NCBI RefSeq assembly: GCF_054482525.1
Contig: NZ_CM137006.1
DNA length: 64,000 nucleotides
Direction: 5' to 3' (one strand)
Shown here: positions 794-31,650 of the stretch, piece by piece
How positions within the stretch are numbered: the stretch's first letter is position 1
How the letters are laid out: every line of letters starts with the position of its first letter
Translations under genes and position numbers: made by a program
The notes under the pieces: model-generated
Told to the model about the DNA's origin: nothing
The model's database searches: none
Seen by the model: only the letters and a program-made list of their open reading frames with translations

Positions 794-1189
794 TCACATT
801 TCATAGGTAATGACATAAGTCAGATCGGCTGAACTCCACAGGCCCGCATCATCGTCGCGCCGGTAGTCATAGCCACTGGCCACCATACTGGTGATCAAAT
901 CTGACAGTGCCGGGATATCGCTCATCACCGGATAAATCCGGGACTCCATCCACGAATCCAGCTCTGAATCCGGCACCTGAGCAGGCAGGAAAACTTCAAT
1001 ATGCAGCTCCGCCTGCCAGGTATCGTTGTCCAGCTCTTCGCCCGTGTATTCAGCGCCGGTGAGATAAACGGCAATTGCCGGAAAATCTTCCTCATCAAAA
1101 ACAGCGGGGCGACCATCAAAAAGCATCGCCCCGGTGTCATGCTTCTCCAGTGCATCCAGTACGGCTGCACGTAGTTCAGTATGTTTCAT
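794..1189 (-). CDS. U: Tail terminator protein U
   Basis: 131 aa, [21 protein letters not shown]..., reads as lambda gpU. Confidence 0.9.
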
Positions 1190-1761
1190 CGCTTTATCAC
1201 AATCCTCAGTTGTTGTTTCAGCGCATAGCCCAGTTCTTTTGGCAGACGTTCTCGCCGGATACGGTTAACGTTCTCATCAAAAGCCTGCTTCAGTGGGGCC
1301 GCCATCGGAATTTTCACCACCTGAATGGGAAGACGATTACGCTTTTTCCTTCCCTTATCGTCATTGCCCTTCGCATACCGGGCTTCTGGCAAACGTTGCA
1401 TAACATGCCAGCGCCCATTATTTAATCGCTGGATGAATGCCCGCTGATAACGATGCTGACCGGCTTTGAGTATGCTGTTCGGACGATGACCAAGCATCCT
1501 GATCCCCAGCTTAATAGCAGGGAGATCACCGCGGTTAACGATAATTTTTGCGTTCGGATTTCTTACCGTAGCCCGTTTCAGTCTGGATCGCTCTTTAACA
1601 AGTTTTCTCGGCACCCGGGTTTCACGGGCGACCTGAGACGAAGACTGATTAATCGCCGTTGTGGCCACGCGGTTAATGGCAATTGCTGACGCACCAGGCA
1701 CCGCCGTTTTGCTGATACGGCTGAGGTTTTCAACAGCCTGCTCAAGACCTTTTATGGCCAT
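1186..1761 (-). CDS. Z: Tail completion protein Z
   Basis: 191 aa, MAIKGLEQAVENLSRISKTAVPGA..., reads as lambda gpZ; overlaps U start. Confidence 0.88.
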   Translation of the reverse strand: MAIKGLEQAVENLSRISKTAVPGASAIAINRVATTAINQSSSQVARETRVPRKLVKERSRLKRATVRNPNAKIIVNRGDLPAIKLGIRMLGHRPNSILKAGQHRYQRAFIQRLNNGRWHVMQRLPEARYAKGNDDKGRKKRNRLPIQVVKIPMAAPLKQAFDENVNRIRRERLPKELGYALKQQLRIVIKR

Positions 1762-2577: not shown

Positions 2578-3603
2578 TTACGCCAGTTGTACAGACACGA
2601 ATTCATCAGGGTCAGCCAGCAGCATCAGCGGTGCTGACTGAATCATGGTGAACTCACGCGCCGGATCGCCGGTGGTCACCCAGTTTTTCGGGTAACGGGC
2701 AGAGGCGTTAATGCCTTCGCGCTGTGCGTCCGCATCCTGAATGCAACCATAGGTGCGCAGACCGCGTGCCTGAGTGTTCCCCAGCACCATCGTGTTGTCC
2801 GGCAGGAAGTTCTTTTTGACGCCGTTTTCCACGTACTGTCCGGAATACACGACGATGGCCACATCGCCATACATTCCCTTATAAGACACCGCTTTGCCCA
2901 GGTCTTTTACCGCTGTCTCCAGTTCGGAATGAGAGCCGCGACGGGTATCCAGCGTCTCCCTGACGGCTTTGAAGGAACGGAACAGCGCCCAGCCTTTCGG
3001 ATCAAACACGATGATATTCACCACGCCGCTGGCGTTCAGCGCGTAGGCTTCGATATCGTCGGTCGGGTCATACGTGGACTTGTCACGCTTGCTCCACTCC
3101 GTACCACCGGACTGCGTGATGTTGTTGGCCGCACTGCGGCCCATATCCACCTCAACCGGATCGAAGGCTTCACCGGTCATGGTGTATTTGCCCTTAAGCA
3201 CGGCAGAAACGGCCTGCATCTCTTCGACCTGAGCAATGGCCAGCTCTTCGTCACGCATGTTCTGCATGATGATGCGACGGCGGCGGTAAGCCGGGTCCGC
3301 CAGATTCTGCGGATCTTCATCCGGCAGGCGACGCAGGGTCATCTGCGGATTCACCTCATGCTTGGGTTTGACATATCCCGGCGTAAATTCAGAGGTGGAT
3401 CCGCCACGGGAACGGATAACCTCACCGGAAACAATCGGCGAAACGTACAGCGCCATGTTTACCAGTCCCGGAATTTGTGAGAGATAGACTTTCTCCGTGG
3501 TGAAGGGATAGCTCTCACGGAAAAAGAGACGCAGAAACAGCGGATCAAACTTAAATTTCTGCTCATTTGCCGCCAGCAGCTGGGCGGTTGTGTACATCGA
3601 CAT
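2578..3603 (-). CDS. E: Major capsid protein E
   Basis: 341 aa, MSMYTTAQLLAANEQKFKFDPLFLRLFFRESYPF..., reads as lambda gpE. Confidence 0.93.
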   Translation of the reverse strand: MSMYTTAQLLAANEQKFKFDPLFLRLFFRESYPFTTEKVYLSQIPGLVNMALYVSPIVSGEVIRSRGGSTSEFTPGYVKPKHEVNPQMTLRRLPDEDPQNLADPAYRRRRIIMQNMRDEELAIAQVEEMQAVSAVLKGKYTMTGEAFDPVEVDMGRSAANNITQSGGTEWSKRDKSTYDPTDDIEAYALNASGVVNIIVFDPKGWALFRSFKAVRETLDTRRGSHSELETAVKDLGKAVSYKGMYGDVAIVVYSGQYVENGVKKNFLPDNTMVLGNTQARGLRTYGCIQDADAQREGINASARYPKNWVTTGDPAREFTMIQSAPLMLLADPDEFVSVQLA

Positions 3604-3659
3604 AAAAAAAATCCCGTAAAAAAAGCCGCACAGGCGGCCTTTAGTGATGAAGGGTAAAG

Positions 3660-13350: not shown

Positions 13351-13379
13351 AATATATGATTTTTAATCCAGTTTTGCAA
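13351..13379 (-). promoter_or_regulatory. Candidate late promoter (pR'-like): -35 TTGCAA, 17-bp spacer, -10 TATATT
   Basis: Sigma70-like hexamers with 17-bp spacing at the 3' end of the Q-like gene, about 50 nt upstream of the hairpin terminator. Confidence 0.4.
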
Positions 13380-14052
13380 TATCTTGCTGTGAAAATGTGG
13401 TCTTTTGTTTTGAACGTGTTTTCGTTAAAAGCAATAAAGCTTGGCTATCAAGCTGTAGAAAAATGTGCTTCATTGCAACCCAGCGTTCAGTAAATGTCTC
13501 AGACCAGTTTTTTGATGTCACTCCCACCAGTGATGCCAACTCCTGGTATTCATAGGTCTTACGCCCTGCCAGCTCGTTCTTCACATCCTGTGCCGCCAGC
13601 CAGATCAACTTCTTCAAACGTTCCAGTGTCTTACCTGCAATTTTCCTGGTACCCAACAGAGTCTTAAACTCGCTCCATGCCCACTGCGTTATGGTGACCT
13701 GATGTTCCCAGCGAACACTTTCGCTGTAACTCCACAGCAACCACGCTTTCTGATGTTCTTCGAGAGACAGAACCGCGCGGCGCCATGATGATGTTGAGAA
13801 CTCGATCGGACTGACCAGGGCAATGGATGAGCCTTTCGCCCGTGACTGCTTACCGGGTATCGGCGGATTATCCAGCGTTATTAACCTGCCGGTCACTTCA
13901 TCCAGAATGCGCGGTTTCTTTCGTTTGTATGTACCGGTATCAAATTGCGCATGCTCCTGCCAGGCCACCAACTGCCCTTTCGTCGCACCACTCAGATCGG
14001 CGGTGGCCACCATGAGCTGCTCGCGAACAAACTGTAAATATTGGGTATTCAT
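13363..14052 (-). CDS. Putative late-gene antiterminator (Q-like), 229 aa
   Basis: Assigned by position between rusA/nin and the late promoter/lysis cassette; not similar to lambda Q; no family match recalled. Confidence 0.5.
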   Translation of the reverse strand: MNTQYLQFVREQLMVATADLSGATKGQLVAWQEHAQFDTGTYKRKKPRILDEVTGRLITLDNPPIPGKQSRAKGSSIALVSPIEFSTSSWRRAVLSLEEHQKAWLLWSYSESVRWEHQVTITQWAWSEFKTLLGTRKIAGKTLERLKKLIWLAAQDVKNELAGRKTYEYQELASLVGVTSKNWSETFTERWVAMKHIFLQLDSQALLLLTKTRSKQKTTFSQQDIAKLD

Positions 14053-17490: not shown

Positions 17491-19017
17491 TTAGAAATAA
17501 ATCTCACCATCAACCATATATTTGAGAGCACTTATCGCCTGCTGGGCGGATATTACTTTCATTAAAGGATAGTGTTTAAAAACAATGCCATTCATAAAAT
17601 AGATATCACAGGTTTTATTATCCGTATTAATTATGATTTTTTCGAATGTTTTATAGGCAAGTGTACGGCATAACTCTCGTCCATTTTTACTGGTTAAGTC
17701 AATAGCATAAAAATCACTGAATGAATTTACACCTTTACTCTTCAAAGTTTTCAATGATACCGAAGCCCTTCGTAATTCCTTATCTAATAGTCTTATTTTC
17801 TCTGCTATAGCGGTAACTTCAGGCGCGACAGACAATGCAACGATTAAATTATTAATTTTCATCTGAAGCTCAATAATTTTTAACTCTAAAGTTTCATTAG
17901 CATCTTTCTTGTTTTCAACTGGTTGAATTTTGCTACAATTAAAAAGCAATTCATTAATGATATTATAATCAACCAAATCTCTTTTTATTGATGGCCTGTC
18001 ACATCGATGTAATCTTCTCATCGGACAAACATAATAGCCATGCAAACTTCCAGATACCGCATGAACAATCATGGTATTACCACAAGCCTCACACTTCATA
18101 ACTGTTCGAAGTAGATTTATTAGCATAGGATTCTTGCTACTATTGCTAATACCAAAAGGTGCCAACCGAATTTCCTGTACAGCGTAAAACAAATCATCTG
18201 ATATGACTCTGGGATAATAGCCAGCGATTTCACTTATCCCTTTCCCTCTTGCACGATATGAAGGTACGCATATACCTATCAGAGCTTTATTCGCTAATAA
18301 TTTTTCAATTACAGAAGGTCCCCATGCACTTTCTTTTCCTGAGAAATTCTTTACAGCATGATCATTTAAATACTTGGCTATTGCATTCAATGAGCGCCTT
18401 TCCATCCTGAGTTTAAAAATTAGCTCAATAGTTTTCACCCTGTCGGGGTCTGGAACAAAAGCCGTTCTTTTGTCATCTAAGGAGAGCCATCTCGGACAAG
18501 ACGCCGTCATAATCGTACCTGATTCCAGTGCATCCTGCCGTTTTTTCTTCCATGATAATTTAACCCGACTTGACTTTATCTCGCTTTCTTCATTTGCCCT
18601 TTGTGCTATAAGTATGGCTTTTATTAATGAATATGGCTCATTCAAAGAGTCAATATTATAGACTGTATTGTCGCAAAGAGTTATAACATCAATACCGTGA
18701 TTCAAAATCAATTTCAGACGTTCAATCGCTTCACCGACTTTTTCTCTTGAAAGTCTGTCCAGACTTTCAACTAACAATGTAGTTCCTGGCAATATATAAC
18801 CATGCTCTATAGCATCTAAAAATTCCGAAAAAGCTCCTGATTGTGCATGCTTTCCTTTGAATGCACTTAATCCTAAATCTTCATATGTTATGGTATCAAG
18901 ATAATAATCACTATTTACCTTTAACCATTCAGCAATAAGTCTTCTCTGTCGGTTTAATGAGTCGCCAGACATCTGACCTGGTGATGAAAATCGCATATAT
19001 GCTATGGCTTTTTTCAT
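17491..19017 (-). CDS. Large serine recombinase (ybcK-like), 508 aa
   Basis: N-terminal resolvase/invertase catalytic motif (AIAYMRFSSPGQ...SLNRQ), central recombinase domain, C-terminal Cys-rich zinc-ribbon (CEACGNTM...CPMRRLHRC). Confidence 0.85.
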   Translation of the reverse strand: MKKAIAYMRFSSPGQMSGDSLNRQRRLIAEWLKVNSDYYLDTITYEDLGLSAFKGKHAQSGAFSEFLDAIEHGYILPGTTLLVESLDRLSREKVGEAIERLKLILNHGIDVITLCDNTVYNIDSLNEPYSLIKAILIAQRANEESEIKSSRVKLSWKKKRQDALESGTIMTASCPRWLSLDDKRTAFVPDPDRVKTIELIFKLRMERRSLNAIAKYLNDHAVKNFSGKESAWGPSVIEKLLANKALIGICVPSYRARGKGISEIAGYYPRVISDDLFYAVQEIRLAPFGISNSSKNPMLINLLRTVMKCEACGNTMIVHAVSGSLHGYYVCPMRRLHRCDRPSIKRDLVDYNIINELLFNCSKIQPVENKKDANETLELKIIELQMKINNLIVALSVAPEVTAIAEKIRLLDKELRRASVSLKTLKSKGVNSFSDFYAIDLTSKNGRELCRTLAYKTFEKIIINTDNKTCDIYFMNGIVFKHYPLMKVISAQQAISALKYMVDGEIYF

Positions 19018-19271
19018 GGTGACACCTGCTAACGTATGCTTTTATAAACCTTAGTGGTGGGATATAATTTTTGTTTAATTTTTATTTAAAAAGACAATTA
19101 AGGTCACATTATCTTGAATATACAACAATAATCGTATTGCAATTTTCTTACGCCATAATCTTGAAGGCACAAAAGAATACATAAAAAATAAAGACATTAA
19201 CAAAAAGCATAAAACGAGGCTCATATAAATATAAGAGCCTCCATATTTTAGTCGTTTAGAAACAAATTATT

Positions 19272-19604
19272 TTAATGTGGTGTACTTCGTGACAATAAAT
19301 TAATAACCAACACACCGGCACAAATCAACATCATGCCTATAATGGCTGGCAGGTCCAGCCGTTGGCCGAAAAATCCCCATGACAGTAAGCTAATCAGGAC
19401 AATACCGACTCCTGACCAGATAGCATAAGCAATCCCTGTAGGAATATAAGCCAGCGTCTGAGCTAATAACCAGAATGATGCACAATAACAAATAATTGTA
19501 CCAACAGATGGCCATAACCGTGTAAAACCTTCTGAAAACTTCATTAAGGTTGTACCAATGACCTCTGCAAGTATTGCACCACCAAGATAAATATAAGGGT
19601 TCAT
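19272..19604 (-). CDS. emrE: Small multidrug-resistance efflux protein EmrE
   Basis: 110-aa product from MNPYIYLGGAILAEVIGTTLMKFSEGFTRLWPSVGTII..., reads as EmrE; track ORF trimmed to Met19. Confidence 0.88.
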   Translation of the reverse strand: MNPYIYLGGAILAEVIGTTLMKFSEGFTRLWPSVGTIICYCASFWLLAQTLAYIPTGIAYAIWSGVGIVLISLLSWGFFGQRLDLPAIIGMMLICAGVLVINLLSRSTPH

Positions 19605-19671
19605 AGCATATTCTTTCCTGTTCAAACTGGAGAGAATTGTACTACAGTTTGAACTCAACTCACCTGTTTCA

Positions 19672-20672: not shown

Positions 20673-21598
20673 AGCTCCACCCCGTAAATCCAGTCAGTGT
20701 TCGTCAGGTCGAATTTTGGTTTGCCGGCTGTCACGCCAGCCTGTTGCTTGTTACGGTTGATTTCGAGTTGGGTCCACTTGTCGCGGAGTTTGGCCGGACT
20801 TAGCACGTTACCGGACCAGAAGTTGTCCTGGCATGCCCAGCGGAACAGCACGCACATGTCGCGGTGGTTACGTCCGTCACGTTCACGCATCAGGCGGATA
20901 TCGTTAGCCCACCCTGCAAAATTCGGTTTTCTGGCTGATGGCGCGATGGTCTTCACCATGTCAAACATCCACTCTGCGGCGGTCAGGTCTTCTGCTGTCC
21001 CCCACTTTCTGCCGCTCTGAATTGCAGCATCTGGTTTCACCACAGGAAGATCCTTTTCTGGTTGGTCAGAGGATTCTCCAGAATTCTCGGACGAAAAAGG
21101 TTTTATATTGTCTTTTGTTAGTTTGTCTTTTGTGTTTACCTGATTCGGGTAAACGCCTTTACCTGATTTGGGTAAACTTTTCTTACCTGATTCAGGTAAA
21201 TTTACCTCTTTCAGGTAAACTTTATTTTTCTTACCTGATTCGGGTAATGTTGACCATTCACTGACCACATTATTAATACCGATATTCCGCCCGCTCTGAA
21301 TCAAAATCCCACGCTTTACCAGAACACTTTTTGCAGCAGAACACTTGTGCGGCAATATCCCGGTCAATTCGGACAGTTGCTCGTTGCTCACCCAATCCAG
21401 TTTTTTATTAAAGCCATATGTTTTGCGCATGACAGCCAGGAAGACCAGAAGCTGGTGCTGTGTTAATCCGGCCAGCATCACAGCTTCCAGCAACTCATTT
21501 GCAATGCGCGTATAACCATCATCGAGATCTGCCACGCGCGGCTCCTTTTGTGCCGCATCCGGCACAGGAAAATTGAATATCTCAGCAGTGTTTGCCAT
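20669..21598 (-). CDS. O: Replication initiator O (lambda O-like variant)
   Basis: N-terminal domain O-like (...VADLDDGY.R......LEA...); contains the iteron array; start trimmed to first ATG (Met31); the upstream TTG/GTG alternative is not excluded. Confidence 0.8.
   Translation of the reverse strand: MANTAEIFNFPVPDAAQKEPRVADLDDGYTRIANELLEAVMLAGLTQHQLLVFLAVMRKTYGFNKKLDWVSNEQLSELTGILPHKCSAAKSVLVKRGILIQSGRNIGINNVVSEWSTLPESGKKNKVYLKEVNLPESGKKSLPKSGKGVYPNQVNTKDKLTKDNIKPFSSENSGESSDQPEKDLPVVKPDAAIQSGRKWGTAEDLTAAEWMFDMVKTIAPSARKPNFAGWANDIRLMRERDGRNHRDMCVLFRWACQDNFWSGNVLSPAKLRDKWTQLEINRNKQQAGVTAGKPKFDLTNTDWIYGVEL
21136..21248. repeat. Origin of replication iterons: five copies of TTACCTGATTCGGGTAAA-like 18-mers inside the O gene, with adjacent AT-rich stretch
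   Basis: Copies at about 21136, 21159, 21183, 21202 and 21231, each an internal inverted repeat (TTACC...GGTAA); AT-rich run at 21090-21135. Confidence 0.75.
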
Positions 21599-21684
21599 AA
21601 TTCCTCCCGCAATGAGTGTGTTACGATTTGCACCTGAAAGTCGGTTCTGTTCCCGCAGACCGACTTTCGCCATTTTTGAACCTG

Positions 21685-22224
21685 TCATATTGCCCCCAGC
21701 ATGGTGGTTACCATCGCCATCAATGGACCAGCCAGATCCGGGTCCACTCGAAACATCGACACAATGCCTTCACTCATCTCCTTCAGTTTCTGGTGGCGTG
21801 GTGCGTTGAGAATGACCGCCTGCTTTGCCTCACAGAGTTCCTTTTCCATTTCAGCCAGCCGAGCCATGAAGCTATCCTGCTCAACCAGGTGGCCGCGATA
21901 TTCCAGCGGTAGTACCGCCAGAATTGCCGGGGTCAGTTCACGCACGTTATTTCGGTATTTTTCAGAATCGAATTTGTTATCGAGGAAGCGGAACAGCTTC
22001 TGGCGTGCACGGCTGACATCATCAGGGAAATCGATAGTGCCGCCGCCCTGCTCCCGATACTCATTCACAATGAGTGTGGCAACGACATCCTGATTATCTT
22101 CAGCCGACCAGGCGCGGACGGCATCACGGATTTTTTCGTGGCCTGGCACCTGTTTTGTTTGAGAACGATTTATCACCGCAGTCGGGCTAAATCCGCTAGT
22201 CTGTTGGTATGTAAGTGGTTGCAT
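21685..22224 (-). CDS. YdaT-family protein in the cII position
   Basis: 179 aa; segment ...EYREQGGG...TPAILAVLPLEYRGHL... resembles Rac YdaT; position immediately after the cro-like gene. Confidence 0.55.
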   Translation of the reverse strand: MQPLTYQQTSGFSPTAVINRSQTKQVPGHEKIRDAVRAWSAEDNQDVVATLIVNEYREQGGGTIDFPDDVSRARQKLFRFLDNKFDSEKYRNNVRELTPAILAVLPLEYRGHLVEQDSFMARLAEMEKELCEAKQAVILNAPRHQKLKEMSEGIVSMFRVDPDLAGPLMAMVTTMLGAI

Positions 22225-22293
22225 AATTGACTCCTTTAGTTTGAATTGACTGTTAAGTTGATTGCTTATTGTTAAAGAGCGTGAAATGGAAAT

Positions 22294-22524
22294 TTAAGCT
22301 GCGTTCTTTTCGGTGTGTGGAAACAACTTCGGAAGATCCGGGCGAATCTGGTATGCCTTCACTACTCCACCAGTAGCCGTAACAATGCTGCCGACATGTT
22401 CAGGGGATACCTTTGCTTTGTTGTGAAGCCACTTATAGACGGCCTGCTGTGAAACTTCGCAGGCAGCGCCCAGTTTCTTTTGTGAACCAACGATATTGAT
22501 CGCTGTTTTGATAGCTGGATTCAT
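22294..22524 (-). CDS. Cro-like HTH regulator (YdaS type)
   Basis: 76 aa, HTH ...KKLGAACEVSQQAVYKWLHNK...; divergent from the cI-like gene. Confidence 0.7.
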   Translation of the reverse strand: MNPAIKTAINIVGSQKKLGAACEVSQQAVYKWLHNKAKVSPEHVGSIVTATGGVVKAYQIRPDLPKLFPHTEKNAA

Positions 22525-22539
22525 AACAACCTCCGTGGT

Positions 22540-22620
22540 TAATTTGAATCAAGATTAAAACTATGGTTGTTTTTAGTCAACAACCATTTTCGTTTGATGG
22601 AATAAAACCTTGGTTGTACA
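22540..22620. promoter_or_regulatory. Right operator/promoter region (OR-like) between divergent cro-like and cI-like genes
   Basis: Palindrome ATGGTTGTT-N7-AACAACCAT at 22563-22587 and related AACTATGGTT / CCTTGGTTGT half-sites; the same motif family recurs at 24335-24390. Confidence 0.5.
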
Positions 22621-22628
22621 TTTGGACT

Positions 22629-23318
22629 ATGAAAACAACACTCTCAGAAAGACTTAAAGAAGCCAGATTAGCGCGAGGCCTTACACAAAAGGCGCTTGGG
22701 GATTTGGTCGGGGTTAGCCAAGCTGCTATTCAGAAAATCGAAACAGGGAAAGCTAACCAAACAACTAAAATCGTGGAGATCGCGAACGCTTTGGGTGTGC
22801 GCGCAGAATGGTTATCTTCTGGCGTTGGAAATATGTCAGACAGTACAGTGCAACCAATACAATCAACTGTCAGCCATTCCAAATACTTTAAGATTGACGT
22901 TCTTGATATAGAAGTGAGTGCCGGGCCGGGAGTCATCAACCGTGAATTTGTAGAAGTTCTACGCTCGGTTGAGTACTCGTTTGACGATGCTCGTCACATG
23001 TTCGATGGCAGGAAGGCGGAAAATATCCGCATCATTAACGTGCGTGGTGACAGCATGTCAGGAACGATCGAACCAGGTGATCTGCTGTTCGTTGATATCA
23101 CGGTTAAATCTTTCGACGGTGATGGTATCTATGCGTTTCTGTACGACGACACAGCCCATGTAAAGCGCCTGCAAATGATGAAAGATAAGCTACTGGTTAT
23201 CTCTGATAACAAGAGCTACTCACCGTGGGACCCGATCGAGAAAGACGAGATGAACCGGGTGTTCATTTTCGGGAAGGTTATTGGCAGTATGCCGCAGACG
23301 TATAGGAAACACGGATAA
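22629..23318 (+). CDS. Prophage repressor, LexA/S24 peptidase type with N-terminal HTH
   Basis: MKTTLSERLKEARLARGLTQKALGDLVGVSQAAIQKIETG... (HTH); C-terminal ...NVRGDSMSGTIEPGDLLFVD...HVKRL... (S24 Ser/Lys motifs); trimmed to first ATG. Confidence 0.8.
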   Translation: MKTTLSERLKEARLARGLTQKALGDLVGVSQAAIQKIETGKANQTTKIVEIANALGVRAEWLSSGVGNMSDSTVQPIQSTVSHSKYFKIDVLDIEVSAGPGVINREFVEVLRSVEYSFDDARHMFDGRKAENIRIINVRGDSMSGTIEPGDLLFVDITVKSFDGDGIYAFLYDDTAHVKRLQMMKDKLLVISDNKSYSPWDPIEKDEMNRVFIFGKVIGSMPQTYRKHG

Positions 23319-23397
23319 TCAGCTGCGTGCTGATGAGGCTTTTGGGTAATGCGCTGAAAGAATTCTTTATAAAAATAACATTACGGGAAAGGCAAAA

Positions 23398-23667
23398 ATG
23401 AGTGATAAAAAACTTATAAAAAAATCAAATAACTGTGTAGATGCATATGCTGATGCATTTGGATATTCATCTTTTGGGGAAGATGACGATCGCTTAGGCT
23501 CCATATCTTTCTTTCAGCATGTTACAGAATGGGGCGCTGATGGTAGTAATGACACTGAAAACGTAAAGTACAACATTGCAACAATTCGCATGACGGAAGA
23601 TTTAATGCTTAAACTCGCTGACTTTATTCGCGATCAGCATGATAGAGCTAAAACCAATAAGTCATAA
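23398..23667 (+). CDS. Hypothetical acidic protein (89 aa), first gene of the repressor-downstream moron
   Basis: ATG start with upstream AAAGG; no family recognised; C-terminal KYNIATIRMTEDLMLKLADFIR is reminiscent of a ribbon-helix-helix strand-helix. Confidence 0.5.
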   Translation: MSDKKLIKKSNNCVDAYADAFGYSSFGEDDDRLGSISFFQHVTEWGADGSNDTENVKYNIATIRMTEDLMLKLADFIRDQHDRAKTNKS

Positions 23668-23675
23668 TATTAACA

Positions 23676-24116
23676 ATGAAACACGGTTATTACGAAGCTC
23701 CAAACCTAACTGAAAAGCTTGAACAAGCGGCAAGATCATCATCTTTGCACACTGCAGCATTTTCTCAATCAGCTGGTATGTCTGGCGGTAATGTACCTAT
23801 GCTACAATCAAGTGGTAGCGGTGGCTCTGGGAGTAATAATGTGCTTGAATCGAAAGTTGCAAAGCTTGAGTCTGATGTGTCCTATATCCGACGTGACGTT
23901 GATGAGCTTAAGACAGATGTCAAATCTATCGACAGAAACATGATCGCTGTTCTGGAGCGACTCGATTCAATAAAAGATTCACTAGCCAAAAAACCCTCCA
24001 TCGATGCTGTCGATAGAAAGATTTCAGACGCAAAGCTTGCGGTATTGCTTGGTGTTCCAGCAATCATCGCTGCAGGAACAGGTCTTTATAAGCTATCAAT
24101 GTACTTTTTTCTTTAG
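23676..24116 (+). CDS. Hypothetical coiled-coil protein with C-terminal membrane anchor (146 aa)
   Basis: 8-bp gap after upstream gene; Gly/Ser-rich linker (SSGSGGSGSNN), charged heptad-like stretch, C-terminal hydrophobic helix LAVLLGVPAIIAAGTGLY; no family recognised. Confidence 0.5.
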   Translation: MKHGYYEAPNLTEKLEQAARSSSLHTAAFSQSAGMSGGNVPMLQSSGSGGSGSNNVLESKVAKLESDVSYIRRDVDELKTDVKSIDRNMIAVLERLDSIKDSLAKKPSIDAVDRKISDAKLAVLLGVPAIIAAGTGLYKLSMYFFL

Positions 24117-24191
24117 TGCTTAAGAAACTGCTCGCCACCTTGCATTACGCAAAGCGATTTTTCATTCCCTATTACCCTTTCTTATCCATAT

Positions 24192-24222
24192 AAACCCGGC
24201 CCCAGTGCCGGGTTTTCTTTTG
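24192..24222 (+). terminator. Intrinsic terminator closing the repressor-moron operon
   Basis: AACCCGGC-CCCAGT-GCCGGGTT followed by TTCTTTT. Confidence 0.65.
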
Positions 24223-24334
24223 CCTCCCCTCATCACACAAACCGTTCAAAAAACCACCACGACCTCGCTTCAGTTATCGCTATGCGATGCAAGTCACAAA
24301 ATAAATCCATCTTAAATACAACCAGTTATATCTA

Positions 24335-24390
24335 AAACAACCAATAAAACAACTTTTGTTGTTGACGATAAAACAACTATGGTTTTAAAT
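24335..24390. promoter_or_regulatory. Left operator/promoter region (OL/pL-like)
   Basis: AACAACCAAT, palindrome ACAACTTTTGTTGT and AACTATGGTT (same motif as the OR region); candidate -35 TTGACG, 17-bp spacer, -10 TTAAAT reading rightward. Confidence 0.45.
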
Positions 24391-24583
24391 GAATTCATCG
24401 CAACAACACAACGATACGGCAATCACCTGATTCACCGTTGCGATGACCGCTTAGATCCGCAGCTTGAATTTCAGCAGGCTCCGGGGAGTGCGAGGGGTGA
24501 AGCGGACGCGTGAACGTCGGTGTGACCAGCTGAAATCAACTCAACACTTCATACCTCAGTCGCTTCAACGAGGCGACTTAGTT

Positions 24584-24874
24584 ATGACAACCGGCGGCCA
24601 TCCACCGCCTGAATACGCGCAGAAGTCTCTATATGTTCAGCAGCCCAGCTTACGGGCAGGAGTTTTTATGGTTCATCAACATTACGGAACGCAGACCGTT
24701 AATCGAGGTGCGGTCATGCCAGGAATGCTGGTCAAACACAAAGATGGTACCTGGACTGCATCAGCTAATTTACGCGGACGGCTTTATCTGCATCGCGGCA
24801 TCGAGCGCACTTATACCCGTGACTTGCTCGTGGAAGTTTTTCTCGACGGGCGCGGCAACGGTCTGAATCACTAA
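24584..24874 (+). CDS. Hypothetical early-left protein (96 aa from first ATG)
   Basis: Only ORF between pL-like promoter and gam; track ORF starts at TTG 24464 with an Arg-rich stretch (GVKRTRERR) upstream of the first ATG; no similarity to lambda N, kil or cIII recognised. Confidence 0.35.
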   Translation: MTTGGHPPPEYAQKSLYVQQPSLRAGVFMVHQHYGTQTVNRGAVMPGMLVKHKDGTWTASANLRGRLYLHRGIERTYTRDLLVEVFLDGRGNGLNH

Positions 24875-24949
24875 TCCCCTTTCCTGTTTACCTAATCAGC
24901 CTGGCATTTCGCGGGCGATATTTTCACAGCCATTTTCAGGAGTTCAGCC

Positions 24950-25246
24950 ATGAACGCTTATTACATTCAGGATCGTCTTGAGGCTCAGAGCTGGGCGCGT
25001 CACTACCAGCAGATCGCCCATGAAGAGAAAGAGGCAGAACTGGCAGACGACATGGAAAAAGGCCTGCCCCAGCACCTGTTTGAATCGCTATGCATCGATC
25101 ATTTGCAACGCCACGGGGCCAGCAAAAAAGCCATTACCCGTGCGTTTGATGACGATGTTGAGTTTCAGGAGCGCATGGCAGAACACATCCGGTACATGGT
25201 TGAAACCATTGCTCACCACCAGGTTGATATTGATTCAGAGGTATAA
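24950..25246 (+). CDS. gam: Gam, RecBCD inhibitor (short form)
   Basis: 98 aa, [21 protein letters not shown]...; reads as lambda GamS; upstream in-frame stop prevents a long form. Confidence 0.9.
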
Positions 25247-25251
25247 AACGG

Positions 25252-26037
25252 ATGAGTACAGCACTCGCAACGCTGGCTGGGAAGCTGGCTGAACGTGTCG
25301 GCATGGATTCTATCGACCCACAGGAACTGATCACCACTCTTCGCCAGACAGCATTTAAAGGCGATGCCAGCGATGCGCAGTTCATCGCATTGCTGATCGT
25401 CGCCAACCAATACGGCCTTAATCCGTGGACGAAAGAAATTTACGCCTTCCCTGATAAGCAGAACGGCATCGTTCCGGTGGTGGGCGTTGATGGCTGGTCC
25501 CGCATCATCAATGAAAACCAGCAGTTTGATGGCATGGACTTTGAGCAGGACAATGAATCCTGTACATGCCGGATTTACCGCAAAGACCGTAATCATCCGA
25601 TCTGCGTTACCGAGTGGATGGATGAATGCCGCCGCGAACCATTCAAAACCCGCGAAGGCAGAGAAATCACCGGACCGTGGCAGTCGCATCCCAAACGGAT
25701 GTTACGGCATAAAGCCATGATTCAGTGTGCCCGTCTGGCCTTCGGATTTGCGGGTATCTATGACAAGGATGAAGCCGAGCGCATTGTCGAAAATACCGCA
25801 TACACTGCAGAACGTCAGCCGGAACGCGACATCACTCCGGTTAACGATGAAACCATGCAGGAGATTAACACTCTGCTGATCGCCCTGGATAAAACATGGG
25901 ATGACGACTTATTGCCGCTCTGTTCCCAGATATTTCGCCGCGACATTCGCGCATCGTCAGAACTGACACAGGCCGAAGCAGTGAAAGCTCTTGGATTCCT
26001 GAAACAGAAAGCCACTGAGCAGAAGGTGGCAGCATGA
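25252..26037 (+). CDS. bet: Bet (Red-beta single-strand annealing protein)
   Basis: 261 aa, [46 protein letters not shown]..., reads as lambda Bet. Confidence 0.94.
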
Positions 26038-26714
26038 CACCAGACATTATCCTGCAGCGTACCGGGATCGACGTGAGAGCTGTCGAGCAGGGGGATGATG
26101 CGTGGCACAAATTACGGCTCGGCGTCATCACAGCTTCAGAAGTTCACAACGTGATAGCAAAACCCCGCTCCGGAAAGAACTGGCCTGACATGAAAATGTC
26201 CTACTTCCACACCCTGCTTGCCGAGGTTTGCACCGGTGTGGCTCCGGAAGTTAATGCTAAGGCGCTGGCCTGGGGAAAACAGTACGAGAACGACGCCAGA
26301 ACCCTGTTTGAATTCACTTCCGGCGTGAATGTTACTGAATCCCCGATCATCTATCGCGACGAAAGTATGCGCACCGCCTGCTCTCCCGATGGTTTATGCA
26401 GTGACGGCAATGGCCTTGAGCTGAAATGCCCGTTTACCTCCCGGGATTTCATGAAGTTCCGGCTCGGTGGTTTCAAGGCCATAAAGTCGGCTTACATGGC
26501 CCAGGTGCAGTACAGCATGTGGGTGACACGAAAAGATGCCTGGTACTTTGCCAACTATGACCCGCGTATGAAGCGTGAAGGACTGCATTATGTCGTGGTT
26601 GAGCGGGATGAAAAGTACATGGCGAGTTTTGACGAGATGGTGCCGGAGTTCATCGAAAAAATGGACGAGGCACTGGCTGAAATTGGTTTTGTATTTGGGG
26701 AGCAATGGCGATGA
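26034..26714 (+). CDS. exo: Exo (Red-alpha 5'-3' exonuclease)
   Basis: 226 aa, [40 protein letters not shown]..., reads as lambda Exo. Confidence 0.94.
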
Positions 26715-26893
26715 CGCATCCTCACGATAATATCCGGGTAGGCGCGATCACTTTCGTCTACTCCATTACAAAGCGAGGCTGGGTATTTCCCGGCCTTTCT
26801 GTTATCAGAAATCCACTGAAAGCACAGCGGCTGGCTGAGAAGATAAATAATAAACGGGAGGCGGTATGCACAAAGCATCTCCTGTTGAGTTAA
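26711..26893 (+). CDS. Lambda orf60a-like protein
   Basis: [46 protein letters not shown]... recalled as lambda orf60a. Confidence 0.65.
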
Positions 26894-27057
26894 GAACGAG
26901 TATTGAGATGGCACATAGCCTTGCTCAAATTGGAGTCAGGTTTGTGCCAATACCAGTAGAAACAGACGAAGAATTTCATACGTTAGCCACATCCCTTTCA
27001 CAAAAGCTGGAAATGATGGTGGCGAAAGCAGAAGCAGATGAGAGAGACCAGGTATGA
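26866..27057 (+). CDS. Lambda orf63-like protein
   Basis: 63 aa ORF in the lambda exo-xis region; recalled as orf63. Confidence 0.6.
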   Translation: MHKASPVELRTSIEMAHSLAQIGVRFVPIPVETDEEFHTLATSLSQKLEMMVAKAEADERDQV

Positions 27058-27349: not shown

Positions 27350-27447
27350 ACATGAAAAGCAAAATCATCAGGGAGCTACAGGCTCCTTTTTTATTATTCG
27401 CATTTACCCTCAAGCGTATTAACCAACAATTCAGGGATTAATGAAAG

Positions 27448-28092: not shown

Positions 28093-28329
28093 ATGTCTCG
28101 ACTAATCACTTTACAGGACTGGGCTAAAGAAGAATTTGGGGACTTAGCACCAAGTGAGCGAGTTCTGAAAAAATACGCGCAAGGGAAAATGATGGCCCCA
28201 CCCGCTATAAAAGTTGGTCGCTACTGGATGATTGACCGAAATTCCCGTTTTGTAGGAACGCTTGCAGAACCGCAACTCCCAATAAACGCAAACCCAAAAC
28301 TCCAACGGATAATCGCTGATGGCTGCTAG
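28093..28329 (+). CDS. xis: Excisionase (Xis-like)
   Basis: 78 aa; N-terminus MSRLITLQDW... parallels lambda Xis MYLTLQEW...; AGGAGG RBS; 3' end overlaps int start. Confidence 0.7.
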   Translation: MSRLITLQDWAKEEFGDLAPSERVLKKYAQGKMMAPPAIKVGRYWMIDRNSRFVGTLAEPQLPINANPKLQRIIADGC

Positions 28330-29461
28330 ACCCCGATCTCACAAAATCTCTATACCCAATTTATATTGCAAATTAGATAAGCGAACCGGAAAGGTATATT
28401 GGCAATACAAACATCCACTATCCGGTCGTTTTCATAGCTTAGGAACTGATGAGAATGAAGCAAAACAAGTTGCTACTGAAGCAAATACCATTATTGCTGA
28501 ACAACGTACCCGACAAATATTAAGCGTCAATGAGCGTCTAGAAAGAATGAAAGGCAGGCGCTCAGACATTACGGTGACAGAATGGCTTGATAAATATATT
28601 TCTATCCAGGAGGACAGGCTGCAACATAATGAACTAAAACCCAACTCCTATCGGCAAAAAGGTAAACCCATTCGTCTTTTCCGTGAGCATTGTGGAATGC
28701 AACACCTCAAGGATATTACCGCACTTGATATTGCCGAAATAATTGATGCTGTAAAGGCTGAAGGTCATAACAGGATGGCGCAAGTCGTGAGAATGGTGTT
28801 GATCGACGTCTTCAAAGAAGCACAACACGCAGGACATGTTCCGCCAGGATTTAACCCAGCGCAGGCAACAAAACAACCGCGAAATCGAGTAAACCGCCAA
28901 AGATTATCACTGCCCGAATGGCAGGCAATATTTGAAAGCATAAGCAGACGGCAGCCCTATTTAAAATGCGGCATGCTACTTGCTCTTGTTACTGGACAAC
29001 GTTTAGGCGATATCTGCAATTTGAAATTCTCTGATATATGGGACGACATGTTGCACATTACTCAGGAAAAAACCGGTTCAAAACTTGCTATTCCGCTTAG
29101 CCTGAAATGCGATGCTCTGAATATTACCCTTCGTGAAGTTATATCTCAGTGCAGGGATGCTGTTGTTAGTAAATATCTGGTCCATTACCGTCACACTACC
29201 TCTCAAGCAAACAGAGGAGACCAGGTTTCTGCAAATACTCTTACAACGGCTTTTAAAAAGGCCAGGGAAAAATGTGGCATAAAATGGGAGCCAGGAACTG
29301 CGCCCACATTTCATGAGCAGCGATCTCTGTCAGAACGGTTATATCGGGAACAGGGTCTGGATACGCAAAAGTTGTTAGGTCATAAATCCAGAAAAATGAC
29401 CGACCGATACAATGATGATCGTGGTAAAGACTGGATTATCGTAGATATCAAAACAGCATAG
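28319..29461 (+). CDS. int: Tyrosine integrase, lambda Int family
   Basis: 380 aa; motifs shared with lambda Int (RSHK near N-terminus, ...VTGQRLGDICNLKFSDI..., ...TFHEQRSLSERLY..., ...LLGHKS...RY.DDRG..W); adjacent to the attachment junction. Confidence 0.9.
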   Translation: MAARPRSHKISIPNLYCKLDKRTGKVYWQYKHPLSGRFHSLGTDENEAKQVATEANTIIAEQRTRQILSVNERLERMKGRRSDITVTEWLDKYISIQEDRLQHNELKPNSYRQKGKPIRLFREHCGMQHLKDITALDIAEIIDAVKAEGHNRMAQVVRMVLIDVFKEAQHAGHVPPGFNPAQATKQPRNRVNRQRLSLPEWQAIFESISRRQPYLKCGMLLALVTGQRLGDICNLKFSDIWDDMLHITQEKTGSKLAIPLSLKCDALNITLREVISQCRDAVVSKYLVHYRHTTSQANRGDQVSANTLTTAFKKAREKCGIKWEPGTAPTFHEQRSLSERLYREQGLDTQKLLGHKSRKMTDRYNDDRGKDWIIVDIKTA

Positions 29462-29574: not shown

Positions 29575-30825
29575 TTACATATTCTTGATGATCGCGTCAC
29601 CAAACTCTGAACATTTCAGCAGTTTAGCGCCTTCCATCAGACGTTCGAAGTCATAGGTTACAGTCTTGGCGTTGATCGCGCCTTCCATACCTTTAACAAT
29701 CAGGTCTGCGGCTTCAGTCCAGCCCATATGGCGCAGCATCATCTCAGCGGAGAGAATAATAGAGCCTGGGTTTACTTTGTCCTGACCGGCATATTTCGGC
29801 GCAGTACCGTGGGTGGCTTCAAACAGGGCGCATTCGTCACCGATGTTTGCGCCTGGGGCGATACCGATACCGCCGACCTGTGCAGCCAGAGCGTCAGAAA
29901 TGTAGTCACCGTTCAGGTTCATACAGGCGATAACATCATATTCAGCCGGACGCAGCAGAATCTGTTGCAGGAATGCATCAGCAATCACGTCTTTAATGAC
30001 GATCTCTTTGCCGGTATTCGGATTTTTAACTTTCAGCCACGGGCCGCCGTCGATCAGTTCACCGCCAAACTCTTCACGCGCCAGCTGGTAGCCCCAGTCT
30101 TTAAACGCGCCTTCGGTGAATTTCATGATGTTGCCTTTGTGAACCAGGGTCACAGAGTCACGATCGTTAGCAATTGCGTATTCGATCGCTGCACGAACCA
30201 GACGTTTGGTGCCTTCTTCAGAACACGGCTTAATACCGATGCCGCAATGTTCCGGGAAGCGAATTTTCTTCACACCCATCTCTTCACGCAGGAATTTAAT
30301 CACTTTCTCAGCGTCGGCAGAGTCTGCTTTCCATTCGATACCCGCATAAATGTCTTCCGAGTTTTCACGGAAGATAACCATATCGGTCAGTTCAGGGTGT
30401 TTAACCGGGCTTGGGGTGCCCTGGTAGTAACGTACCGGACGCAGGCAGATATAGAGATCCAGCTCCTGGCGCAGGGCAACGTTCAGAGAGCGAATACCGC
30501 CACCAACCGGAGTGGTCAGCGGGCCTTTGATGGCAACGCGATATTCACGAATCAGATCAAGGGTTTCAGCAGGTAGCCAGACATCCTGACCATAAACCTG
30601 TGTGGATTTTTCACCGGTGTAAATTTCCATCCAGGAGATTTTACGCTCGCCTTTATAGGCTTTCTCGACTGCAGCGTCGACCACTTTCAGCATGGCTGGG
30701 GTTACATCTACACCGATTCCATCACCTTCAATGTAAGGGATAATCGGATTTTCAGGAACGTTGAGTTTGCCGTTTTGCAGGGTGATCTTCTTGCCTTGTG
30801 CCGGAACAACTACTTTACTTTCCAT
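29575..30825 (-). CDS. icd: Isocitrate dehydrogenase (NADP), 3' end contributed by the prophage
   Basis: 416 aa, [38 protein letters not shown]..., ends ...FGDAIIKNM. Confidence 0.95.
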
Positions 30826-30996: not shown

Positions 30997-31650
30997 ATGC
31001 GGCAATTCATAATCTCTGAAAATACCATGCAAAAAACTTCTTTTAGAAATCACCAGGTTAAGCGATTCAGCTCGCAACGTTCTACCAGGCGTAAACCTGA
31101 AAACCAGCCCACGCGTGTGATCCTGTTCAATAAACCCTACGATGTTCTTCCGCAGTTCACCGATGAAGCCGGACGCAAAACATTAAAAGAATTCATCCCG
31201 GTTCAGGGCGTTTATGCGGCAGGTCGTCTCGACCGCGATAGCGAAGGGTTGCTGGTGCTGACCAATAACGGCGCGTTGCAGGCGCGTTTAACCCAGCCGG
31301 GTAAACGCACCGGAAAAATCTATTATGTGCAGGTGGAAGGTATTCCCACACAAGACGCACTTGAAGCCTTGCGCAATGGCGTAACCTTAAATGATGGCCC
31401 TACCCTGCCCGCAGGCGTAGAGCTGGTTGACGAACCCGCGTGGTTATGGCCGCGGAATCCACCAATTCGTGAACGCAAAAGTATTCCCACCAGCTGGCTG
31501 AAGATCACCTTATATGAAGGACGTAATCGCCAGGTGCGCCGCATGACCGCCCATGTTGGTTTCCCCACGCTGCGACTGATTCGCTATGCGATGGGTGATT
31601 ACTCTTTGGATAATCTTGCCAACGGCGAATGGCGAGAAGCGACAGATTAA
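30997..31650 (+). CDS. rluE: 23S rRNA pseudouridine synthase RluE
   Basis: 217 aa; recognised as RluE (YmfC) by sequence and synteny next to icd. Confidence 0.9.

Follow-up and report, generated by a model that had tools for sequence, protein, structure and literature searches.

The 64,000-nucleotide (nt) stretch of DNA analyzed here, from contig NZ_CM137006.1 of NCBI RefSeq assembly GCF_054482525.1 and in the following called the window, contains a lambdoid prophage integrated beside icd. In the leader of its early-left operon lies a 100-nt RNA of two hairpins, hereafter the core, which we consider a candidate cis-acting antiterminator. On the plus strand, the prophage carries cI, two open reading frames (ORFs), a terminator, the operators with pL, the leader with kil, then gam, bet, exo, lambda-like orf60a/63/61, a DksA-like gene, xis and int, in that order; the minus-strand genes are cro, a CII-like gene, O, P, ren, an EmrE/QacE-like gene, a gene for a large serine recombinase, ninB, rusA and a gene for a Q-type late antiterminator. 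The early-left operon has neither an N gene nor a nutL site. An earlier note on this DNA had drawn attention to the roughly 730 bp between OL/pL and gam as a region lacking N, and that layout is real, with gam starting at 24950 and no Pfam, PHROG or NCBIfam model of N matching any early ORF.

The promoter pL has a –35 element TTGACG (24362-24367), a 17-nt spacer and a –10 element TTAAAT (24385-24390), which would place the start of transcription near 24397, and the OL/pL arrangement parallels that of OR/pR at 22587-22530. This region is immunity-specific, having a different sequence in phage Perceval and in an O157 prophage, and the hairpin at the 5' end of the leader also varies with immunity type, with unrelated sequence in the O157-type leader. 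Homology with related phages begins at the terminator closing the cI operon. The closest isolated phages, namely Perceval (genus Bievrevirus), Lambda_4C10, 4A7, 1W, 3W, D2, IdasGreatGrand, Turner and the PhiR series, share the early-left arrangement at 91-97% identity and have no annotated N; relatives including Perceval, Lambda_4C10, IdasGreatGrand and the PhiR series are plaque-forming. As for known antitermination sites, no boxA with up to three mismatches was found within 24223-24949, and none upstream of any core-bearing copy of the leader module described below. Searches for put by eye, with an nhmmer profile and with a covariance model gave no match in the window; the nhmmer profile recovered put in 27 loci, none of them of the window family, and the best window match of the put covariance model (R2) had an E-value of 0.5 and lay outside the early region. 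An Rfam cmscan of 21500-25500, with E-values up to 1 allowed, returned only a chance miRNA match inside cI.

The core occurs as three sequence types, that of the window and those represented by loci L051 and L144, with the divergent copies taken from IMG/VR, a Trabulsiella genome and two metagenome contigs. When these were aligned, 99.1% of the cells in the two-hairpin structure could pair, compared with 25-40% in slid controls, and four pairs showed changes on both sides. Hairpin A reads CCG-C-AGCUUG[AAUUUCAG]CAGGCU-C-CGG in the window, with AG/CU exchanged for CA/UG in the L051 type. In the apical stem of hairpin B an A-U pair becomes G-C, and the adjacent pair occurs as G.U, A-U and G-C, while two additional copies (L142 and L256) contribute a further pair at column 64/79. 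Because of the G.U pairs, the structure is specific to the strand transcribed from pL. A covariance model built from the core alignment (R1) found one copy in the window, at 125 bits and an E-value of 5e-27, the next best match having an E-value of about 0.5. A long-range helix between ATTTCAGC and GCTGAAAT, enclosing the core, was also considered and rejected, as three variants disrupted it without any compensatory change, hairpin A being preferred.

Positions 24441-24541 are identical in prophages with three different immunity regions, and overall the core is joined to at least five different immunity regions; it is therefore not an operator-linked feature. With at least 80% coverage of a 276-nt leader query as threshold, the leader was present in 2205 of 5426 complete E. 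coli genomes (~41%). INPHARED and the complete E. coli genomes contained the window type of core only. In a collection with one genome per species, a first core pattern gave no matches, and a looser one matched only E. coli and Trabulsiella, apart from two chance matches in coding sequence; a metagenome scan added two further copies. Neither the core nor the leader module was found in the searchable literature, the coverage of which does not extend to King et al. 2011, on put-like RNAs. A 7-kb contig filed as 'MAG: Collinsella sp.' (L254, JAIJJM010000109.1) was also seen to carry a near-exact window-type OL/pL and leader, and is probably a mis-binned fragment of an E. coli prophage.

In locus L150, the core occupies the place that the 'putL-like antiterminator RNA' has in the annotation of phage HK639: the 5' leader (…GGCGAAGTGGAG) on one side, and the 3' hairpin and first gene on the other, are the same in both, such that an 83-nt put cassette in the one corresponds to a 103-nt core cassette in the other. 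In phi80, the same 5' leader is followed by boxA/nutL and then N. This shared 5' pL leader of ~55 nt, CCATCGAAACGAAACATCGACAGCTGAGCGAAGTTAGCCAGCGGCGAAGTGGAG, was found at 2262-2318 in phi80 (L006), at 1773-1827 in HK639 (L012), and in L150, L051 and L137-L152; it is joined to several operator/immunity regions, and the cassette behind it is phi80 boxA/nutL, put or core. Among 195 module-bearing loci with enough upstream DNA to be scored, 41 had the core, 44 put and 55 the phi80-type boxA, and not one had two of the three. Which gene comes first after the core varies among phages (HNH endonuclease, TerB-like, unknowns); none of these genes is N-like, and no gene next to the core is common to its contexts. 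Furthermore, in 13 loci of the HK639 type, each with 4 kb or more of upstream DNA, put is present once only, which gives a left-only RNA antiterminator a precedent.

Terminators lie downstream of the core both in the window and elsewhere. A scan for intrinsic terminators indicated a terminator-like hairpin inside the orf60a homologue; the surrounding DNA (26700-26900, plus strand) is 97% identical to lambda 31169-31351, including the hairpin GAGGCTGGGTATTTCCCGGCCTT, and is presumably where the rho-independent terminator tL3 of lambda lies. A second and strong terminator-like site precedes the DksA-like gene, xis and int. In all 10 of 10 distinct contexts other than that of the window, a canonical intrinsic terminator was found between the core and the module with its downstream genes, so that read-through should be required there, and no other antitermination device was seen in any of these ten contexts.

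The module just mentioned is a leader element with three hairpins that follows the core in the window and is conserved with phi80, HK639, HK225 and KO-TP1. Across phages it forms an intergenic element of 120-160 nt with a varying next gene, and its general order is CATACC, hairpin 1, TAGTT-ATG-ACAACC, hairpin 2 (GGCGGCCATCCACCGCC), a variable insert, GCGCAGAAGTCTTGT(A)TTAAC, hairpin 3, a Shine-Dalgarno sequence and the start of the next gene. The window copy has CATACC, hairpin 1 (24555-24581), an ATG at 24584, hairpin 2 (24593-24609), the block GCGCAGAAGTCT (24617-24628), hairpin 3 (GCCC/GGGC, 24643-24657) and the Shine-Dalgarno AGGAG (24658-24662). Other copies lie at 2995-3128 in phi80, at 2966-3100 in HK639 and at about 3500-3638 in HK225 (L005), and at least 120 IMG/VR stretches matched the module in each of two pattern scans. 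Outside the window family a canonical intrinsic terminator (tL1A in phi80, for example) stands immediately before it, and the HK639 annotation labels part of it 'terminator'. Hairpin 1 is the hairpin that the earlier note had seen just before the ATG; it is present, at 24558-24578, and is supported far beyond chance, with changes on both sides in seven of eight pairs among 17 variants, six or more different stem sequences, and 97.8% of cells paired as compared with 25-53% with slid partners. The nucleotides of hairpin 2 and of the ATG hardly vary. We considered whether the conserved entity might be a stalling peptide of the polyproline kind, MTTGGHPPP, encoded by the upstream ORF (uORF) that begins at this ATG, and ruled this out, because its amino acid sequence varies: indels of 1-2 nt, falling after the ATG and before hairpin 2, shift the frame (giving MRRRPSTAH* or MKPAAIHR...) with the nucleotides unchanged, and the block GCGCAGAAGTCT, itself conserved, falls in any of three frames. 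If we were to guess, the module could serve transcripts that have passed tL1 as a pad for ribosome loading or processing, and an element this widespread and unannotated, placed after tL1 terminators, deserves study.

The gene that follows the module in the window, next to gam, is on sequence grounds a member of the Kil/KilR family of FtsZ inhibitors. The earlier note had described a single ORF here, with 96 amino acids (aa) from the ATG at 24584 and no resemblance to lambda N or kil. The frame (24464-24874, 136 aa, open in the window from a TTG at 24464) and the ATG are indeed present, but the region holds two others, of 44 aa (24379-24513) and 77 aa (24633-24866), and RefSeq WP_000233577.1, a 'phage encoded cell division inhibitor protein', has 68 aa from ATG 24668, the start we also assign, with no RefSeq gene in the leader. 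The dissimilarity to kil did not hold up: residues 60-136 of the long frame match positions 4-80 of the 83 in PHROG 294, 'Kil protein for bacterial septation inhibition', with an E-value of 1.4e-38, and the statement is right only in that the 68-aa protein is unrelated to lambda's own Kil. The note had itself foreseen that the ORF might match an unrelated known family, and Kil turned out to be that family. Residues 69-136 also match NCBIfam NF008465, 'FtsZ inhibitor protein' (E-value 6.6e-17, 61.3 bits, under the curated cut-off of 92), no Pfam match was found for the 68-aa protein, and its identity to phi80 Kil is 41% (E-value 5e-16). Kil homologues in HK225, mEp237, KO-TP1, SEN34 and phi80 have 68-69 aa, and in these the frame ahead of the Met is closed within 3-18 codons. 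In the window lineage the uORF is in frame with kil, making a 96-aa extended form possible, although this is not conserved. The gene should thus be annotated as a 68-aa Kil and not as a protein of 96-139 aa. It agrees with Rac KilR and phi80 Kil in its whole-length match, its size and its early-left position by recombination genes, and differs in its NF008465 score below the cut-off.

The upstream part of the long frame, in which the earlier note had noticed the arginine-rich GVKRTRERR, was compared across 31 distinct close variants. The motif is there, but without sign of selection as protein. The substitution C24557T, found in 10 of the 31 variants including the isolated phage IdasGreatGrand, creates an in-frame TAG separating the arginine-rich stretch from the remaining frame; the frame from ATG 24584 no longer runs into kil in L017 and L086, which lack 2 nt, or in L078, which lacks 1 nt, these three independent indels decoupling the upstream frame from kil; and a 1-nt deletion at 24467 in L086 destroys the TTG frame. 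In the other core types, the GTG matching that at 24497 is followed at once by a stop in the L051 type (GTG-TAA) and after three further codons in the L144 type (GTG-AAG-CGG-ACG-TGA), and no PHROG match was found for the frame. Weak counter-signals were a GGGGAG 7 nt ahead of GTG 24497, an ATG start made by G24497A in three variants, and five synonymous changes among seven substitutions in codons 1-20; these were outweighed, and the arginine-rich frame was judged not to be a gene. As a separate observation, some 200 nt past the core, phages of the L051 type have a very basic ORF of 17 codons, MPVKQRERQKRTGYKRR, that has a good Shine-Dalgarno sequence (L051 6432-6380, minus strand).

Table 1. 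Features of the prophage, in window coordinates, ordered by position.
Feature	Position	Strand	Details
Q-type late antiterminator	13363-14052	–	
boxA	22269-22281	–	Exact consensus CGCTCTTTAACAA (0 mismatches), in 69-nt cro-cII spacer
cI	22563-23318	+	
Intrinsic terminator closing cI operon (cI and two moron ORFs)	24192-24215	+	9-bp stem with 6 GC pairs, T-rich tail
OL operators and pL-like promoter	24330-24396	+	AACAAC/GTTGTT half-sites; read from sequence
5' leader hairpin	24397-24444	+	Inverted repeat, ATCGCAAC...GTTGCGAT
Core leader RNA, candidate cis-acting antiterminator	24441-24541	+	100 nt; hairpin A 24457-24484, hairpin B 24493-24531
Arginine-rich frame	24497-24556	+	GTG start, KRTRERR; inside hairpin B; judged not a gene
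Leader module	24550-24667	+	118 nt, three hairpins
kil	24668-24874	+	68-aa Kil/KilR-type cell-division (FtsZ) inhibitor; PHROG 294; AGGAG Shine-Dalgarno 5 nt before ATG
gam	24950-25246	+	Pfam Gam PF06064, E 2.9e-64; annotations in relatives
bet	25252-26037	+	ORF list; annotations in relatives
exo	26034-26714	+	ORF list; annotations in relatives
Terminator-like hairpin inside orf60a homologue	26775-26797	+	Scan for intrinsic terminators
Strong terminator-like site in pL operon	27370-27388	+	8-bp stem followed by TTTTTATTATT
Integrase	28319-29461		
icd	29575-30825	–	

On the pR side, the spacer between cro and cII holds a boxA of 13 nt that equals the consensus CGCUCUUUAACAA of the rrn-type boxA and occupies the classical position of nutR. 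It is followed by no boxB-like hairpin and was found only with this cro allele, being absent from the other core-bearing immunity types; it may be a remnant of nutR, or a signal against Rho that, like the rrn type, works with Nus factors only. A boxA scan of the whole window with up to three mismatches gave 39 matches where 32.9 were expected by chance, and only the two exact ones stood out. The second exact 13-nt copy (1589-1601, plus strand) lies antisense in a head/tail structural gene (ORF 1186-1761, minus strand), with no obvious transcriptional context; two exact copies in 64 kb are unexpected by chance. Elsewhere in the prophage, the interval between cI and OL (23398-24116, plus strand), which is the position of rexAB in lambda, encodes an 89-aa ORF (phrog_4231) and a coiled-coil protein of 146 aa (phrog_3556) whose C-terminus is hydrophobic. 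In relatives the same spot is occupied by GevT/GevA, a SIR2 protein or other genes, and it looks like a defence or moron hot spot. Between ren and the nin region (17491-19658, minus strand), the early-right operon carries a small multidrug-resistance gene of EmrE/QacE type and a gene for a 508-aa large serine recombinase (YbcK-like); the same is seen in DLP12 and phage Perceval.

The exchange with put in one and the same slot, the mutual exclusion of the three cassettes, the terminators downstream, the lack of a common protein and the left-only precedent are the reasons for seeing the core as an antitermination element. Our favoured, if tentative, reading is that the core antiterminates in cis and independently of N, as an RNA belonging to a new sequence family, a proposal that we would place only slightly short of an even chance. 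Transcription from pL would yield a leader of roughly 270 nt that is not translated, followed by kil, gam, bet and exo; the nascent core RNA would act in cis on the very RNA polymerase that made it, in the manner of HK022 and HK639 put, and the elongation complex modified in this way would resist the terminators further on, which would be those at 26775-26797 and 27370-27388 in the window and tL1 in relatives. The delayed-early left genes and the excision functions could then be expressed without a phage antitermination protein. That the core antiterminates, and does so by binding RNA polymerase, we infer. The broader proposition, that the core founds a second family of RNAs, unrelated to put, which modify RNA polymerase in cis with no phage protein, can be exchanged as a cassette with put and nutL/N and is present in about four of ten complete E. 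coli genomes, seems possible to us, with somewhat greater reserve. As for the earlier note, its suggestion of an N-independent mechanism has gained circumstantial support from the missing N and nutL, the plaque-forming relatives without N, and a structured RNA in the slot of put and nutL.

Several observations weigh against an antitermination function of the core. Similarity to put could be seen neither in sequence nor with covariance models, so that any shared mechanism is argued from position alone, and model R1 found no second, pR-side copy in the window. The covariation of the core stems from about three lineages and hence few independent events, identity within the very common window family is 95-100%, and the distribution in the one-genome-per-species collection is narrow, being limited to Escherichia and Trabulsiella. 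Folding energies were no better than those of shuffled sequences (z = –0.2 for the core and –0.75 for the whole leader), a result that is uninformative, and the classification of pL leaders is incomplete, as 55 of the 195 loci were scored as having none of the three cassettes. Finally, the window family has no terminator on the way from pL to exo, which means that kil, gam, bet and exo do not depend on the core there for their expression.

The last of these points, the very high identity and the unremarkable folding energies, together with a simple scan that found no strong intrinsic terminator on the minus strand from cro to Q, would fit with the leader being an ordinary 5' untranslated region. 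The lineage would in that case have lost N, nutL and tL1 by deletion and have no strong terminator before its essential early genes, with the core and the module kept for message stability or translation, or by recent spread. We regard this as unlikely, since it leaves unexplained both why the core sits in the exact slot of HK639 put and why it excludes put and boxA, while the compensatory changes point to selection on structure, and a canonical terminator follows the core in ten other contexts with no other device in sight.

Doubtful to a greater degree is the explanation that the core serves as a nut-like recruitment site for a trans-acting factor, either a phage protein encoded elsewhere or host Nus factors, with an unrecognized protein mediating the antitermination. 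It is favoured by the phi80 arrangement, in which nutL takes this slot behind the shared 5' leader, and by the exact boxA on the pR side; moreover, profiles cannot exclude N-type proteins, given how diverse these are, and phi80 N itself matches only a PHROG of unknown function. Yet there is no boxA in or near the core, its neighbourhoods have no gene in common, the window family has no room for a gene between pL and kil, and most phages with the core lack the pR-side boxA, which goes with a single cro allele. The divergent N-like factor with an unusual start proposed in the earlier note, which would begin at TTG 24464 or GTG 24497, be fused to Kil or remain a peptide of ~20 aa and bind a boxB-like hairpin, is very improbable despite the likeness of KRTRERR to arginine-rich motifs and the counter-signals at GTG 24497, given the TAG, the three indels, the stops after one to four codons in the other core types, the lack of any family match, the assignment of its C-terminal part to Kil, and the finding of neither boxA nor boxB in the leader.

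To our knowledge, put is the only family of phage RNAs that bring about processive antitermination without a protein, and it has served as a key model for how a nascent RNA reprograms RNA polymerase. Should the core indeed do the work of put, then an unrelated second RNA with this task would mean that the solution has evolved more than once, and it would provide a second structure for comparison at the β' zinc-binding domain and the RNA exit channel. It would also explain how very common E. coli prophages, including those of Shiga-toxin strains, and phages such as Perceval and Lambda_4C10 express their excision and recombination genes without N. If the core RNA is instead inert, what we have described is an ordinary N-less lambdoid prophage with a Kil gene.

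Three known systems invite comparison. The rrn-type boxA is a binding site of NusB-NusE for antitermination (PMC3177189, PMC2800207), and the pR-side boxA of the window resembles it in sequence; it differs in that it is not conserved among core-bearing phages and comes with neither boxB nor N. With the N/nutL systems of lambda and phi80 the core shares the slot in the pL leader and the presumed task, namely to allow transcription through tL terminators to the recombination and excision genes, whereas the window leader has no boxA or boxB and the prophage no N gene, boxA being present only on the pR side. The closest parallel is offered by the put RNAs of HK022 and HK639, which are cis-acting, protein-independent processive antiterminators that bind the β' zinc-binding domain of RNA polymerase (PMC9378689; HM208537 annotation). 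The core does not have the conserved put motifs GAACGGC, GUCGG and UCAGGA, nor is there a counterpart of putR, although HK639-type phages likewise have only one put, so that putR does not define the family. Like put, the core is an RNA of roughly 80-100 nt just past pL in a lambdoid phage without N, it has two stem-loops with internal bulges, and it lies upstream of intrinsic terminators as a single copy in the left operon, as in the HK639-type phages.

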